Shown here piece by piece: positions 3,368-7,641 of a stretch of 7,641 bases of DNA. The notes under the pieces were generated by a model. That model saw nothing but the letters and a program-made list of their open reading frames with translations, ran no database searches and was not told where the DNA came from. The stretch is from Escherichia coli (GTDB taxonomy: Bacteria; Pseudomonadota; Gammaproteobacteria; Enterobacterales; Enterobacteriaceae). The stretch's first letter is position 1. Every line of letters begins with the position of its first letter. Made by a program: the position numbers and the translations under genes. Where the stretch lies: NCBI RefSeq assembly GCF_003334255.1, contig NZ_QOWU01000095.1; one strand, given 5' to 3'.

Positions 3368-4006
3368 ATGAGCAAGCAAACTATATCTGAACGCATAACC
3401 CAACGTATGCATGCGCTAAACCTGAAAGGCAAAGACCTTGTCAATGGCACTGGCGCATCAAAAGGCTCCGTAAGTCAATGGATGAACGGTGGAGGAGCGC
3501 CGTCCTCGCGTTACATAAGTTCACTGGCAAAAATATTGAAAGTAAACGAAAATTGGCTTCTTAATGGAGGAGAGTTAAATACAGGTGATTCGCTTGATCT
3601 ATCTTTACCGCCGATAAAAACGGTTCCGCTACTATCACTTCAGCAGGCAGCAAGCTGGAGTGATTATATGAAAAATTCCTCAATAACCTCTTGTGTGCAG
3701 CTTGTCGGAGAAATCCCGGTCAATACCTTTGCAGTTGTTCTAGAGAGTGACAGTATGTCAACATCTGGTGGGGGAGTTTCCATCCCAAATGGTTCAACAG
3801 TTTTTGTTGATCCCGATCGAACCGTACAACCAGGAAATATTGTCCTTGCCTTACCCAAAGGGACCACAACACCTGTCATTCGTAAACTGGAGATAGAAGG
3901 GCCGGATATTCTTTTAGTCCCCACGAATCCTCGCTACCCTTCAATTATGCTGGATGATCTATCTTGCATATTGGGCGTATGCTTTAAAATTCAACAAGAT
4001 ATTTAA
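3368..4006 (+). CDS. CI/LexA-like prophage repressor: N-terminal XRE-type HTH + C-terminal S24 peptidase domain, 212 aa
   Basis: This is the track ORF. The HTH is ISERITQRMHALNLKGKDLVNGTGASKGSVSQWMNG. The C-terminal half aligns by eye with lambda CI: FAVVLESDSM is similar to FWLEVEGNSM (Ser129), and PVIRKL is similar to FTFKKL (Lys173). VFVDPD and PTNPRYPSI are similar to LVDPE and PLNPQYPMI. There is no SD before the ATG. Confidence 0.9.
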   Translation: MSKQTISERITQRMHALNLKGKDLVNGTGASKGSVSQWMNGGGAPSSRYISSLAKILKVNENWLLNGGELNTGDSLDLSLPPIKTVPLLSLQQAASWSDYMKNSSITSCVQLVGEIPVNTFAVVLESDSMSTSGGGVSIPNGSTVFVDPDRTVQPGNIVLALPKGTTTPVIRKLEIEGPDILLVPTNPRYPSIMLDDLSCILGVCFKIQQDI

Positions 4007-4073
4007 CCAACCTCATCTATTTGATTAACTGTATGCCATCGTGGTGATGGCTTAACAGCTGCCTGCTTAAAAT

Positions 4074-4298: not shown

Positions 4299-4454
4299 AT
4301 GGATACTATCGATCTTGGCAACAACGAATCTCTGGTGTACGGCGTGTTTCCAAACCAGGACGGCACCTTCACCGCAATGACGTATACAAAAAGCAAAACG
4401 TTTAAAACCGAAAATGGTGCCCGTCGCTGGCTGGAAAGAAACTCAGGTGAGTGA
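4299..4454 (+). CDS. ydfA: YdfA (DUF1391) small prophage protein, 51 aa
   Basis: MDTIDLGNNESLVYGVFPNQDGTFTAMTYTKSKTFKTENGARRWLERNSGE matches my recollection of Qin YdfA. GAGG lies 5 nt upstream of the ATG at 4299. The track ORF 4218..4454 carries a 27-codon extension with no RBS. Confidence 0.85.
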   Translation: MDTIDLGNNESLVYGVFPNQDGTFTAMTYTKSKTFKTENGARRWLERNSGE

Positions 4455-4455
4455 T

Positions 4456-4584
4456 ATGGATTTTGACACAATCATGGAAAAGGCTTACGAAGAATACTTC
4501 GAAGGCCTTGCCGAAGGCGAAGAAGCTCACAGCTTCAACGAATTTAAACAGGCGCTTTCCAGTTCGGCAAAATCTAACGGCTGA
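4456..4584 (+). CDS. ydfB: YdfB small prophage protein, 42 aa
   Basis: Hand translation gives MDFDTIMEKAYEEYFEGLAEGEEAHSFNEFKQALSSSAKSNG*. AGGTGA lies 5 nt upstream. The ORF starts 1 nt after the ydfA stop. It is too short for the ORF track, and I recognise it as Qin YdfB. Confidence 0.8.
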   Translation: MDFDTIMEKAYEEYFEGLAEGEEAHSFNEFKQALSSSAKSNG

Positions 4585-4613
4585 TAAGCGAAACAGCACC
4601 GCGAGGAATCAGT

Positions 4614-4832
4614 ATGCAGAAACGAGAACCCGTCATCATCGCGCCAGACTATACCGATGATGAACTTTATGAGTGGATGCGCCAGAAAATTAATGCAGCG
4701 CAGGATCTGAAATGGGCTAATGAAGCCAGAGCTAAGCAGGCTGAAAATCTGTCCGCTCTGGAGCAGGATATCACCAGGCTGGAAAAAGCAGCGGCATTAA
4801 GCATTGCCAGAATGATTACATACCCGCGTTAA
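4614..4832 (+). CDS. ydfC: YdfC prophage protein, 72 aa
   Basis: This is track ORF MQKREPVIIAPDYTDDELYEWMRQKINAAQDLKWANEARAKQAENLSALEQDITRLEKAAALSIARMITYPR. GAGGA lies 6 nt upstream. I recognise it as Qin YdfC. Confidence 0.85.
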   Translation: MQKREPVIIAPDYTDDELYEWMRQKINAAQDLKWANEARAKQAENLSALEQDITRLEKAAALSIARMITYPR

Positions 4833-5172
4833 TAGATAACCAACGAAGCTAAGGTTGGTAATTAAGGAGTTCTCCACGGGTGAGGTGGAGTGCGTGCGCC
4901 GGACACGGGTGAGCATCCGGCACTGACAGTTTACTGAAAGGATATTTCCCTGAAAAGTCAGACCATAACGCGAAAGCGCACGGCGAGGTAGCTGGTTCAT
5001 AGATAGCCTGTCGTTAAATTTTCGTCGACCGTGCGCTTCCGGTTGTGGCAACCCGCGAAATGGCGCGGCGGTAAGTATGGCGGGGTTATTCCTTCCCCGT
5101 TGAGGACACCGGGTTGTCAGGTTGACCATACGCTTAAGTGACAACCCCGCTGCAACGCCCTCTGTTATCAAT
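4833..5172 (+). other. structured non-coding spacer of the dicB-operon transcript (DicF precursor leader)
   Basis: There is no credible ORF on either strand. The region is GC-rich relative to its flanks and contains at least 9 local stem-loops, including the 9-bp stem GGGTTGTCA/TGACAACCC (5111-5119/5139-5147). Confidence 0.5.
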
Positions 5173-5225
5173 TTTCTGGTGACGTTTGGCGGTATCAGTT
5201 TTACTCCGTGACTGCTCTGCCGCCC
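5173..5225 (+). ncRNA. dicF: DicF small regulatory RNA (53 nt; antisense regulator of ftsZ and other mRNAs)
   Basis: TTTCTGGTGACGTTTGGCGGTATCAGTTTTACTCCGTGACTGCTCTGCCGCCC matches, as far as I can recall, the K-12 DicF sequence base for base. It has the correct context, between ydfC and dicB, and is followed by TTTTT. Confidence 0.9.
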
Positions 5226-5230
5226 TTTTT
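5188..5230 (+). terminator. DicF intrinsic terminator
   Basis: GGCGG (5188-5192) pairs with CCGCC (5220-5224), and an inner CAG/CTG pair is possible. The stem is followed by the T5 run at 5226-5230. Confidence 0.7.
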
Positions 5231-5238
5231 AAAGTGAA

Positions 5239-5378
5239 TTTTGTGATGCGGTGAATGCGGCTAAGCGCACGCGGAACAGTTAAAACCAAAAACAGTGTTA
5301 TGGGTGGATTCTCTGTATCCGGCGTTAATTGTTAACTGGTTAACGTCACCTGGAGGCACCAGGCACCGCATCACAAAA
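5239..5378 (+). promoter_or_regulatory. long-range perfect 15-bp RNA duplex between dicF and dicB (candidate RNase III processing stem)
   Basis: TTTTGTGATGCGGTG (5239-5253) is the exact reverse complement of CACCGCATCACAAAA (5364-5378). The pairing extends imperfectly to about 5233/5384. The stem encloses 110 nt and ends 10 nt before the dicB SD. Confidence 0.6.
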
Positions 5379-5399
5379 CTCATTGTTGAGGGCGCGATA

Positions 5400-5588
5400 A
5401 TGAAAACGTTATTACCAAACGTTAATACGTCTGAAGGTTGTTTTGAAATTGGTGTCACTATCAGTAATCCTGTATTTACTGAAGATGCCATTAACAAAAG
5501 AAAACACGAACGGGAGTTATTAAATAAAGTATGCATTGTTTCAATGCTGGCCCGTTTACGTCTGATGCCAAAAGGATGTGCACAATGA
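5400..5588 (+). CDS. dicB: DicB cell-division inhibitor (MinC-dependent FtsZ-ring inhibitor), 62 aa
   Basis: MKTLLPNVNTSEGCFEIGVTISNPVFTEDAINKRKHERELLNKVCIVSMLARLRLMPKGCAQ is recognised as DicB. GAGGG lies 7 nt upstream of the ATG at 5400. The track ORF 5295..5588 has a spurious 35-codon extension that lies inside the RNA stem region. Confidence 0.92.
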   Translation: MKTLLPNVNTSEGCFEIGVTISNPVFTEDAINKRKHERELLNKVCIVSMLARLRLMPKGCAQ

Positions 5589-5776
5589 ATCCAGTATTTG
5601 CACTTATTCTGACGGTTTTTCTTGTTTCCGGAGAGCCAGTTGATATTGCAGTCAGTGTTCACAGAACAATGCAGGAATGTATGGCAGCAGCAACCGAACA
5701 GAAAATTCCAGGCAACTGTTATCCGGTCGATAAAGTTATTCACCAGGATAATAACGAAATCCCGGCAGGATTTTAA
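5585..5776 (+). CDS. ydfD: YdfD small membrane/lysis protein, 63 aa
   Basis: MNPVFALILTVFLVSGEPVDIAVSVHRTMQECMAAATEQKIPGNCYPVDKVIHQDNNEIPAGF is recognised as Qin YdfD. The ATG overlaps the dicB stop (ATGA), and AAGGA lies 8 nt upstream. The N-terminus is hydrophobic. The track ORF 5531..5776 starts too early. Confidence 0.85.
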   Translation: MNPVFALILTVFLVSGEPVDIAVSVHRTMQECMAAATEQKIPGNCYPVDKVIHQDNNEIPAGF

Positions 5777-5869: not shown

Positions 5870-7641
5870 ATGAGCACTGATAAAGAAGAATTTGCACTAT
5901 ATTGCGAAGCAAAAAATGACAAAGTAAGAAAACGCCTAGGAATTAAAGGTGGTTTTTACTGGACTACAGCAAAAAAATTATCTGTTGCAATCTCCCGCTG
6001 CATTACCGCAATGGATGACAACGATTATGATGAAGACGACTTTAAAAAACCCGTCCGCGTCAATTTGCCCGTTGTTGACGACCTTCCGCCAGAAGGCGTG
6101 TTTGATACTGAATTCTGCAACCGCTATGAAAAAGGCGGGAAAGATGGCATCACAATGACATTTATCGGCCCTTCCCCCTCTGTTCAGGACAAACCAGCCA
6201 GCACTGACAATACCAACATCAACGGCGAAGCCATGACTGAGATTGAGGAGAGCATGCTTCTGCCTGTCTCCGGTCAGGAACTGCCCATTCGTTGGCTTGC
6301 TCAACACGGCAGCGAAAAACCAGTAACGCACGTTTCACGCGACGAACTCCAGGCATTACACATTGCACGGGCTGAAGAACTACCGGCTGTTACTGCCCTG
6401 GCTATTTCGCATAAAACCAGTCTGCTCGACTCGCTGGAGATTCGCGACCTCCACAAACTGGTTCGTGACACTGACAAAGTTTTCCCTAATCCTGGTAATT
6501 CAGACCTGGGACTAATAACTGCTTTTTTCGAAGCATACCTAGACGCTGACTACACTGATCGGGGTCTGCTGACAAAAGAGTGGATGAAAGGAAATCGTGT
6601 TTCACGCATCACCCGCACGGCTTCCGGTGCTAATGCTGGCGGTGGGAACAAAACCGATCGCAATCCGAATTTAGTACACACCCTCGACACACTGGATGTG
6701 GAGATTGCAGCAGCCACACTTCCGATGGATTTTAATATTTATGAAATTCCGGGCAGCGTTTATCGTCGCGCAAAAGAAGTAGTCCTGAACAAAGAAAGTC
6801 CGTTCAAAGAATGGTCCGCAGCACTTCGTGCAACCCCGGGTATTCTGGACTATTCCCGCGCCGCTATTTTTGCACTTATCCGAAGCGCACACCCTGAATT
6901 TTATCACTACCCGGGACGCCTTCAGGGGTATATCAACGCCTATTTGACGGAAACTGATCACGAGAACCCCAGCAAGGAAACTCTCACAGCTGCCCGGCAT
7001 ACGCCGGAAAAAGATATCCTGGAAGAAATTAACCGCGAGGTGGTTACTGAGCGTGAAACAGAAGAAGAAAAACCACAACCATCTGACGCAATGGCAGGTG
7101 AACAGGCAACAACTGAAACAATGGAACCGGATACAACTGAACATGGCCAGAACGCGCAGTCGCTGGATGCTCAGTCGCAGGTGAGTTCCGCTAACCAAGT
7201 AAAAGTCACCGCTGACGAAGTAAACAAAATTATGCAGGCAGCCAATATCAGCCAGCCTGACGCCGATAAGTTGCTTGCTGCATCACGTGGTGAATTTGTT
7301 GAAGGGATTAGTGACCCGAATGATCCGAAATGGGTTAAGGGGCTCCAGACCCGCGATTCTGTGAACCAGAACCAGCATGAATCGGAACGGAACTACCAAA
7401 AAGCGGAACAAAACAGTCCAAATGCGTTACAAAACGAGCCAGAAACGAAACAGCCTGAACCAGTAGCGCAACAGGAAGTGGAAAAAGTCTGCACCGCCTG
7501 CGGTCAGACCGGCGGCGGCAACTGCCCTGATTGTGGCGCGGTGATGGGCGACGCAACATACCAAGAAACATTCGATGAAGAGTATCAGGTTGAAGTTCAG
7601 GAAGATGATCCGGAGGAAATGGAAGGCGCTGAACATCCACA
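5870..7641 (+). CDS. recE: RecE-family exodeoxyribonuclease VIII (YdfE-like), N-terminal 590 codons; 3' end beyond window
   Basis: I translated the frame by hand from the ATG at 5870 to the window end and found no stop: [24 protein letters not shown]...[56 protein letters not shown]...[24 protein letters not shown]...[31 protein letters not shown]...EEMEGAEHP. Long blocks match my recollection of Rac RecE. The ORF is absent from the track because it is open-ended. Confidence 0.9.

Follow-up and report, generated by a model that had tools for sequence, protein, structure and literature searches.

A conserved folded RNA domain in the untranslated spacer upstream of the small RNA DicF in a Qin-like prophage of Escherichia coli

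Introduction

The locus analysed here raises the question of what, if anything, is encoded by the long untranslated segment that precedes the small RNA DicF in lambdoid prophages of Escherichia coli. Few bacterial small RNAs have been known for as long as DicF, the precursor of which has so far been treated as a plain "long untranslated region". The DNA studied is a stretch of 7641 nucleotides (nt) of contig NZ_QOWU01000095.1 (assembly GCF_003334255.1), referred to below as the window, in which a spacer of 340 nt (4833-5172) separates the ydfC gene from DicF; all positions are those of the window, and all of the RNA features described lie on the plus strand. An initial annotation, made from the sequence of the window, had described this spacer as GC-rich, non-coding and packed with hairpins, some of them mutually exclusive, and had proposed that it could be a processing scaffold or an RNA element in its own right. 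That observation was confirmed in the present study, and its interpretation was supported in part.

The precursor of DicF and the nucleases acting on it are already known. According to Ragunathan et al. (bioRxiv 10.1101/2023.04.14.536235), who follow Faubladier (1990), the K-12 strain contains a 190-nt DicF species with an RNase III-dependent 5′ end and a 53-nt DicF that depends on RNase E. As reported there, the 190-nt RNA accumulates in the stationary phase and upon RNase E inactivation, and no internal promoter was found for it.

A four-way junction in the 3′ third of the spacer

The 3′ third of the spacer is a conserved folded RNA domain, which is not confined to DicF loci. This domain of about 115 nt (5042-5156) forms a four-way junction, in which the closing helix P1 (5042-5049/5149-5156) is followed inwards by P2 (5053-5057/5064-5068), P3 and P4 (5112-5119/5139-5146, continued by 5120-5122/5132-5134); P3 consists of a base (5069-5072/5108-5111), an 8 × 8 internal loop and a variable apex (5081-5085/5095-5099). 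In an alignment of 24 non-redundant homologs (A3), 91.8% of the cells were paired, and 11 pairs were changed on both sides, compared to 4.9 ± 1.4 in shuffles (0/500) and two to six in slid controls. A second alignment of 26 homologs (A4), which was model-based, had the pseudoknot discussed below added and leans towards the structure, gave 93.8% of paired cells and 13 pairs changed on both sides, against 4.8 ± 1.3 in shuffles (0/500) and two to five in slid controls. One U-G pair was present in 25/25 sequences and another G-U pair in 10/25, and such invariant or frequent G-U pairs indicate that the structure is formed by the RNA of the plus strand. Moreover, the minimum-free-energy (MFE) fold of the predicted cut product (5037-5173, 137 nt) contained the same four helices as those obtained from covariation. 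Single-sequence MFE folds of the phage P1 and phage cdtI homologs failed to give the consensus, which was taken as a caution alone.

Two of the stems listed in the initial annotation, 5081-5085/5095-5099 and 5111-5119/5139-5147, show strong covariation and correspond to the P3 apex and to P4, respectively. A third one, 5053-5057/5064-5068, fits P2 but is nearly invariant, and the stem placed at 5041-5045/5049-5053 could not be upheld, its bases being used by helix P1 and by the upstream hairpin P0. The P1 helix, the P3 base and the candidate pseudoknot had not been listed, nor had a hairpin in the 5′ part of the spacer (4872-4877/4885-4890).

The invariant sequence GUAUGG on the 5′ strand of the P3 internal loop (5075-5080) is perfectly complementary over 6 nt to the invariant sequence CCAUAC in the apical loop of P4 (5126-5131). 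The pair U5076-A5130 is replaced by C-G in phage P1 (GCAUGG/CCAUGC) and by U-G in three other loci (L056, L181, and L093), and G5080-C5126 is replaced by G-U in L192; no fixed variant disrupting this pairing was seen in the homologs compared. Three scans of viral_contigs for compensated variants returned matches that were nearly all due to chance, with one new variant, G-C to G-U, in L192/L222. These comparisons are suggestive of a pseudoknot that links the internal loop of P3 to the loop of P4, and no more than suggestive because the double change occurs in one column alone.

Occurrence of the domain in prophages and phages

The core of the domain (5050-5150) was found at 8830 places in 4286 of the 5426 complete E. 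coli genomes (~79%), with up to eight copies in some strains; the DicF region was found at 6700 places and the 5′ part of the spacer at 5719 places in the complete genomes. Among the matches listed, no annotated feature lies under the core. In a species-level scan, the core was also detected in E. albertii, E. ruysiae, Shigella, Citrobacter, Trabulsiella, Erwinia, Izhakiella and Serratia symbiotica. The 3′ ~120 nt of the spacer recur alone in phage cdtI (~330 nt after cI), in Stx2c phages and in phages P1 and P7, where the domain is accompanied neither by ydfC nor by the 5′ part of the spacer or a K-12-type DicF. The P1/P7 copy is located in the leader of the ban operon, ~20-40 nt after the C1-controlled P1ban promoter; the annotation of phage P1 carries a "dicF-like region" at the core homolog, and a P1 transcriptome preprint contains nothing on the ban leader. 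The suggestion that the spacer could be an RNA element in its own right thus holds for a part of it, 5042-5156, which covaries and occurs in other phages without its usual neighbours.

Among 136 loci found through the core, 5040-5160 was always present (partly by construction), 4960-5040 was present in 68%, DicF in ~71%, the 5′ part of the spacer in ~40-55% and ydfC in ~35%. The domain was also noted together with DicA, YdaT, Kil and exonuclease VIII genes, as in E. coli Rac/Qin-like prophages, in the record PP818812.1, named "Actinobacillus phage vB_Apl-pPE4" (L180), and this gene set is surprising for a Pasteurellaceae phage.

A homolog of one of five sampled repressors was detectable in 86 of the 141 core loci, and this repressor gene lay upstream on the same strand, 333-2810 nt away, in all 86 loci where it was detected. 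A terminator-like hairpin with a U-tract followed helix P1 at a distance of 36-95 nt in 75 of 80 distinct flanks, compared to 58 of 600 random windows, and four of the five remaining flanks had a longer hairpin with a U-tract. The terminators found after the domain are of the DicF type, of the cdtI type, of a short GGCGGAAACGG...CCGCC type or, in phage P1, GCCCAUCUUCGGGUGGGC. Each locus had a single copy of the domain; neither the pR side nor the opposite strand nor the rest of the locus yielded a second one.

Several peculiarities of these flanks were recorded as well. In the Erwinia, Izhakiella, Trabulsiella, Serratia and Salmonella-phage versions (L170 4690-4790, L178, L167, L147, and L056/L181), the DicF-like terminator hairpin is enlarged, and its loop holds a Shine-Dalgarno sequence and an ATG (AGGAGAGCGAAGAUAAUGUUCUACCG) of an open reading frame (ORF) crossing the 3′ arm and the U-tract; in L170 (4713-4823), this ORF encodes 36 aa without a Pfam match. 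Loci of the cdtI, Erwinia and Izhakiella types (L003 3185-3290; L170 4790-4880; L040, L163, and L178) carry, after the DicF-like terminator, a long hairpin with GACGGGCUCAUAACCCAAUCC, which we take to resemble the anticodon stem-loop of initiator tRNA-fMet. Additionally, direct-repeat operator-like TTGTTGGGGA(A/T)AT boxes are located ~40-110 nt upstream of the hairpin or domain in L157, L064, L034, L054, L056 and L178, and a conserved candidate 5′ pseudoknot, AACCAC-CUCGCCUGAC-GUGGUU-AAAAG-CAGGC, comes after them, where the early-left transcript presumably starts.

The location of the domain early in repressor-controlled operons, 5′ of the first intrinsic terminator in each of three unrelated settings (P1 Pban, cdtI-type pL, and Qin), could be accounted for by a cis-acting processive antiterminator similar to the HK022 put RNA, that is, a nascent domain binding RNA polymerase and providing readthrough of the adjacent terminator and of later ones for expression of dicB/kil, recombination genes or ban. 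The downstream genes require readthrough, and DicB is expressed from dicBp. No N-like protein was seen beside the domain in the cdtI, Erwinia and P1 loci; of the proteins checked downstream, cdtI orf39 and the Erwinia 36-aa ORF were without a match in a Pfam scan, and the others were judged by eye on ORF lists or annotation. The invariant loop sequences shared by unrelated phages also suggest a host partner. However, the covariance model of the domain (R1) had no match (E up to 10) in HK022 22000-33500, a stretch assumed to hold the put regions, although putL and putR were not located there. The domain is present in a single copy per locus with none on the pR side, a put-type element needs no terminator constantly 36-95 nt away, and the K-12 northerns were without a transcript longer than ydfABC-dicF (bioRxiv 10.1101/2023.04.14.536235). 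Antitermination of this kind is considered quite unlikely.

The same data bear on the view that the domain has no function of its own and represents recently spread phage DNA, whose hairpins merely shield a 568-nt untranslated stretch from Rho or RNase. The homologs are indeed close (77% mean column identity), mosaic recombination around the domain is rampant, and the z-score of the 137-nt fragment is unremarkable (−0.6). This view appears very improbable in the face of compensatory double changes ~3-fold over the shuffled and slid controls, of flanks that were exchanged while the domain was retained, and of the maintenance of the domain in P1/P7, which are otherwise unrelated to lambdoid phages.

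The upstream hairpin and the processing of DicF

The idea that the spacer is a processing scaffold is in agreement with the RNase III and RNase E cuts given in the K-12 literature, since the RNase III site projects into the stem GCGCACGG/CCGTGCGC (4976-4983/5029-5036). This stem, already present in the initial annotation, is the core of P0, an imperfect hairpin of ~23 bp (4963-5048), which is the probable RNase III substrate. The predicted fold of P0 has an MFE of −37.4 kcal/mol (z −2.8). The position of the cut, published for K-12 and projected here onto 5036-5044, was estimated in two ways: 190 nt counted back from the DicF 3′ end at 5225 lead to ~5036, and the published cut "between 813 and 814", counted from the dicBp start inferred on the K-12 promoter, leads to ~5041-5044. 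Both positions are inside the 3′ arm of P0, and the modelled hairpin firmly fits the double-stranded substrate expected at the mapped RNase III site. Because the projected cut falls in this arm, the 190-nt RNA would consist of the core domain, a 16-nt linker and DicF. The linker (5157-5172) is AU-rich and single-stranded, and it ends at the RNase E cut between 5172 and 5173, which creates the DicF 5′ end; RNase E prefers RN↓WUU, and the end of the linker, AAU↓UUU, fits this preference.

All lambdoid lineages were found to have an equivalent duplex of P0 arms; its ΔG ranges from −27 to −35 kcal/mol and its loop from 23 to 128 nt, and it was significantly better than shuffles in nine out of ten lineages. 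Duplex energies were compared with shuffles here in place of formal pair counting because the positions of bulges differ between lineages. As the stems are built from two unrelated sequences, GAAAGCGCACGG/CCGUGCGCUUCC and GAUGAGAGCA/UGCUCUCUUC, P0 is, judging by the modelled duplexes, conserved as a structure rather than as a sequence. In a few variants P0 is deleted, and a promoter-like region is then close to the core. In L170 and L178, the long hairpin upstream of the domain has a loop insert of ~85 nt with two T-arm-like hairpins, GGCAGGUUCAAUUCCUGCC and GGUCCGUUCAAUUCGGAC, in which ARAGORN made no tRNA call.

The sequence GUUGUGG (5042-5048) can pair either with CCAUAAC (4963-4969) at the base of P0 or with GCUGCAAC (5149-5156) in P1, so the P0 base and helix P1 compete. 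Modelling of the uncut RNA (4955-5173) assigned a probability of ~0.99 to the pairs of the P0 base and of ~0.01 to those of P1, and the P1 pairs reached ~0.8 when the cut product (5037-5173) was modelled. The same competition is present in other lineages, with CACAAC upstream and CCACAAC downstream. According to these models, P0 would keep the closing helix P1 from forming as long as RNase III has not cut. The switch proposed in the initial annotation was a different one, between pairing of GCGCACG (4976-4982) with 4893-4899 or with 5030-5036, and it did not find support: 4893-4899 belongs to the mosaic 5′ part that about half of the loci lack, and no covariation was detected. The CGC-GAAA-GCG hairpin listed at 4969-4978 is in conflict with P0 and is likewise unsupported.

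A closing helix in mutually exclusive pairings is also what a riboswitch-like or factor-binding sensor would have, in which the junction and pseudoknot form a pocket for a metabolite or host protein that sets termination or RNase access. The domain resembles an aptamer in its build, with a four-way junction, a tertiary pairing of a loop with an internal loop, conserved bases in the junction and loops, and variable stems, and it is tightly coupled to an intrinsic terminator. This explanation is nevertheless rather unlikely: by inspection, the DicF, cdtI and P1 types share no alternative pairing in which the domain would engage the 5′ arm of the terminator, the P1 helix is absent in some variants, no match to Rfam riboswitch classes was obtained, and the taxonomic range is narrow. 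In the window, GCUGCAACGCC (5149-5159) is able to pair with the 5′ arm of DicF, and by inspection this is not kept with cdtI- or P1-type terminators. Antiterminator pairing with the terminator 5′ arm was seen in the DicF type only, and its conservation is not apparent.

The stable 190-nt species that accumulates in vivo (bioRxiv 10.1101/2023.04.14.536235) could alternatively be the body of a trans-acting RNA or a decoy, i.e., an early phage small RNA of ~180-190 nt, made of the domain and an Hfq-type terminator, that pairs with mRNAs or sequesters a host protein, for example via the CU-rich, anti-Shine-Dalgarno-like P3 loop. The domain ends in a terminator hairpin with a U-tail, the RNA has a defined 5′ end close to the domain, made by a promoter or RNase III, and UCCU or CUCC occurs in most of the P3 apical loops. 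However, the P3 apical loop is the least conserved part of the domain, the CU motif is missing in Citrobacter and Serratia, the conserved loops are apparently engaged in intramolecular contacts, and no target or partner is known. An action in trans thus seems unlikely.

The 5′ part of the spacer and its coding capacity

The 5′ part of the spacer (4833-4962) contains small hairpins, TAAGGAG and a 10-nt direct repeat, and it is a poorly supported mosaic, for which sequence comparison does not indicate a conserved function. Matches in E. coli genomes broke at query positions 21, 43, 61, 121 and 210. In many related prophages (L026, L028, and L021 being those compared), a small minus-strand gene of 68-92 aa, with a Shine-Dalgarno sequence and an ATG, runs leftwards from the equivalent of 4853; insertion of such a divergent gene beside the 5′ part, without a counterpart in Qin or in the window, may be the cause of the mosaicism. 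A small hairpin at 4948-4963, C(C/U)CUGA-AAAG-UCAG(G/A)G, is lambda boxB-like and shows a compensatory change of C-G to U-A in other loci; in the window and in K-12 it is degenerate, and CUGA/UCAG alone remains.

The high density of stems was confirmed, with short inverted repeats ~4-fold above shuffles. In a count of perfect inverted repeats (loop length 3-60 nt) in the spacer and in 500 dinucleotide shuffles, 18 inverted 6-mers were found compared to 4.4 ± 2.5 (1/500 as high), ten 7-mers compared to 1.3 and six 8-mers compared to 0.3 (0/500). The MFE z-score of the spacer was modest, −2.2 (plus strand alone) and −3.1 with DicF. All nine stems of the initial annotation, as well as TAAGGAG (4863-4869), the 10-codon GTG ORF (4880-4912) and CGTGCGC (4893-4899), are located where it had placed them, and its description of the spacer as GC-rich was an overstatement for a GC content of 53.5%. 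The stem at 4839/4854 has a mismatch in K-12 and is not supported. The one at 4898/4916 is invariant, except that it is broken in L009, where a deletion takes its 5′ arm, and at 4923/4957 it is a different local hairpin that covaries, so that both stems can be regarded as neutral. The direct repeat CACGGGTGAG does occur at 4875-4884 and 4904-4913, but its significance is marginal (22/500 shuffles) and it is not conserved; the deletion in L009 lies between its two copies.

The initial annotation had also stated that nothing codes in the spacer, and this proved correct. That the spacer encodes a protein, either the reverse 124-aa ORF, a 36-aa ORF or the 10-codon ORF after TAAGGAG, is extremely improbable, even though open frames exist and a "hypothetical protein" is annotated over the region in some phage records. 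The 124-aa and 36-aa ORFs have no Pfam match, and the GTG start of the 10-codon ORF is mutated in several homologs. Indels occur in all frames; the P3 apex measures between 25 and 31 nt in the homologs, and its lengths include every residue modulo 3, which would shift any reading frame. Moreover, the substitutions match one another as paired positions of RNA helices. A coding role of either strand was ruled out on the basis of the Pfam results, these indels and the unconserved start.

Organization of the locus

The window belongs to a Qin-like lambdoid prophage, with the gene of a cI-type repressor at 3368-4006 (plus strand). The ydfC coding sequence (4614-4832, plus strand), a 72-aa ORF with an ATG start that is annotated likewise in strain W46 and in K-12, bounds the spacer on the left with its stop codon. 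The gene order ydfA-ydfB-ydfC-spacer-dicF-dicB is that of K-12, with dicB starting at 5401, 3′ of DicF. In MG1655 (locus L002), the end of ydfC at 4042 and the start of dicF at 4383 leave the same gap of 340 nt, and the alignment of the two spacers contains seven substitutions (97.9% identity), none of them in 5037-5172. The spacer is therefore firmly identified as an ordinary Qin-type, K-12-type DicF precursor region, namely the ydfC-dicF untranslated segment of the early-left (dicBF) operon. The initial annotation, taking the K-12 gap to be ~260 nt, had suggested that part of the spacer could be an insertion, and the identical length in K-12 rules this out.

The unit to which the domain is coupled, DicF together with the hairpin and U-tract of its intrinsic terminator, occupies 5173-5231 (plus strand). 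The covariance model RF00039, which is 52 nt long and excludes the spacer, matched 5174-5225 with 76.7 bits (gathering score 48), and the start at 5173 follows from the K-12 annotation, in which dicF is 4383-4435 of L002, corresponding to 5173-5225 of the window. No Rfam 15 family was found inside the spacer by cmscan (E up to 10, over 4550-5450); the matches over this range were DicF, a sub-threshold STnc100 and one chance match. The STnc100 match lies between dicF and dicB (5237-5377, plus strand, 38.8 bits, gathering score 47, E 9e-7) and is enclosed by a long-range helix UUUUGUGAUGCGGUG (5236-5250)/CACCGCAUCACAAAA (5363-5377), the 5′ arm of which is the expected place of the published RNase III-made 3′ end of a 72-nt DicF. 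When the window and four related loci were searched with ARAGORN, the known tRNAs of phage P1 were the only tRNA or tmRNA genes detected; a tRNA-like gene was rejected because no cloverleaf was found.

Discussion

The explanation that we favour, to which about an even chance is given, is that the spacer, an untranslated segment of the dicBF operon, serves as a scaffold for RNA processing and stability, organised around a conserved folded domain that is autonomous, and forms the body of a phage RNA derived from the leader. According to this scheme, the ~23-bp hairpin P0 would be the RNase III substrate, and intact P0 would sequester GUUGUGG, so that P1 of the downstream domain could not form. 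After the cut, P1 would close, and the 5′ body of the 190-nt RNA would become a compact four-way junction of P1-P4, probably locked by the pseudoknot between the P3 internal loop and the P4 loop. By burying the new monophosphorylated 5′ end, this folded body would turn the 190-nt RNA into a long-lived reservoir, and RNase E would free DicF from it by cutting in the AU-rich linker. The domain and the intrinsic terminator may be an older mobile unit of the early-operon leaders of temperate phages. Derepression would lead at once to its production, whether transcription begins at a nearby start site (P1 Pban, Shigella-type pL) or RNase III trims the RNA at P0, and DicF could be one version of the terminator arm of this unit.

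Several points weigh against this scheme. The homologs are all fairly close, with a mean column identity of 77%, which limits the power of the covariation test, and the double change in the candidate pseudoknot is confined to one column. The P1 helix is absent in natural variants (L016, L157, L064, and L180) and is thus not essential to the domain. The RNase III site in this strain is a projection from K-12, accurate to about ±5 nt, and the refolding from P0 to P1 comes from thermodynamic models only, in which the uncut fold with P1 forced is worse by no more than 3 kcal/mol. In the single-sequence fold of a 195-nt RNA, a long-range pairing of GGCGGUAAG with the 3′ arm of DicF is favoured; the domain's GGCGGUA pairs with that arm because this sequence occurs twice, at 5067-5073 (the P2/P3 junction) and at 5187-5193 (the 5′ arm of the DicF terminator). 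The P1-type terminator has no similarity to GGCGGUA. Finally, the domain is kept where the terminator lacks the DicF seed (phage P1 and cdtI types), and a stabilising role is therefore probably not the whole story.

Another possibility, proposed tentatively and considered less probable than the scaffold, is that 5042-5156 would be a new class of phage cis-regulatory RNA. Binding of a host factor, RNA polymerase or a small molecule to a pseudoknotted four-way junction would determine, at the first terminator of the early operon, whether the phage is committed to expressing its early-left genes (dicB/kil, recombination genes, or ban), with RNase III trimming at P0 as the licensing step and DicF as a passenger in the terminator arm. 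Taken separately, antitermination, riboswitch-like sensing and trans action are ranked, by inference, below the scaffold.

If the ~115 nt in front of DicF are a conserved folded domain, K-12, ~79% of the complete E. coli genomes and the classic phages P1 and P7 contain an unannotated structured RNA, and the 190-nt "long DicF" is a two-domain RNA, the folded half of which may control the release of the toxic DicF and DicB. Temperate phages of different families would then share a mobile leader element at the place where early transcription meets its first terminator, and control of the early operon in N-less lambdoid phages and of the P1 ban operon would become directly testable. No description of the folded domain, its covariation, the pseudoknot or its presence in the P1/P7 ban leader was found in Rfam 15, RefSeq annotation or the literature, the older papers being incompletely covered so that an earlier mention is possible.

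The closest known system is the 190-nt DicF precursor of K-12 itself, which is encoded by the same locus, with a spacer of the same length, 97.9% identical overall and fully identical over 5037-5172. The accessible K-12 literature gives the sizes and the nucleases, and in it a conserved structure, covariation, or an occurrence in P1/P7 or without DicF is not described.

The leader of lambda N in the pL operon has an RNase III site in a long hairpin, and the cut affects N translation beside nutL. As in that leader, an early-left hairpin would be cut here by the host RNase III with remodelling of the downstream RNA, but in the present case the cut would create the 5′ end of a folded non-coding domain, and a terminator comes next. 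A lambda-type nut site (a boxA like CGCTCTTA, boxB, and N) was rejected; the boxA-like GTGCTCTCTTCG of other lineages is the 3′ arm of P0. The put elements of HK022 (PMC9378689) are similar in being folded RNAs encoded directly behind early promoters under repressor control, and no phage protein dedicated to them is known. However, put is ~70 nt long with two stem-loops and is found on both the pL and pR sides, whereas the domain has ~115 nt, a four-way junction and a single copy, always beside a terminator. Homology with put was rejected on the grounds of this other architecture, the one copy per locus and the lack of a covariance-model match in the assumed put stretch. The C4 antisense RNA of P1/P7 (RF01695) was excluded as well, since no Rfam match was obtained and the P1 homolog of the domain is located in the ban-operon leader and not in immI.

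Terminating riboswitch aptamers of the SAM-I type combine a four-way junction with a pseudoknot. The likeness extends to a closing helix with three more helices, to a tertiary pair that joins a loop to an internal segment, and to the intrinsic terminator that comes directly after; unlike these aptamers, the domain has no Rfam riboswitch match, and no conserved antiterminator was found. With respect to biogenesis, SroC and CpxQ (reviewed in PMC9438474) are comparable, being small RNAs freed from a longer mRNA by early termination and endonuclease cuts. Unlike in SroC and CpxQ, the upstream piece here is a conserved folded domain, which is more widespread than the small RNA seed that it precedes.

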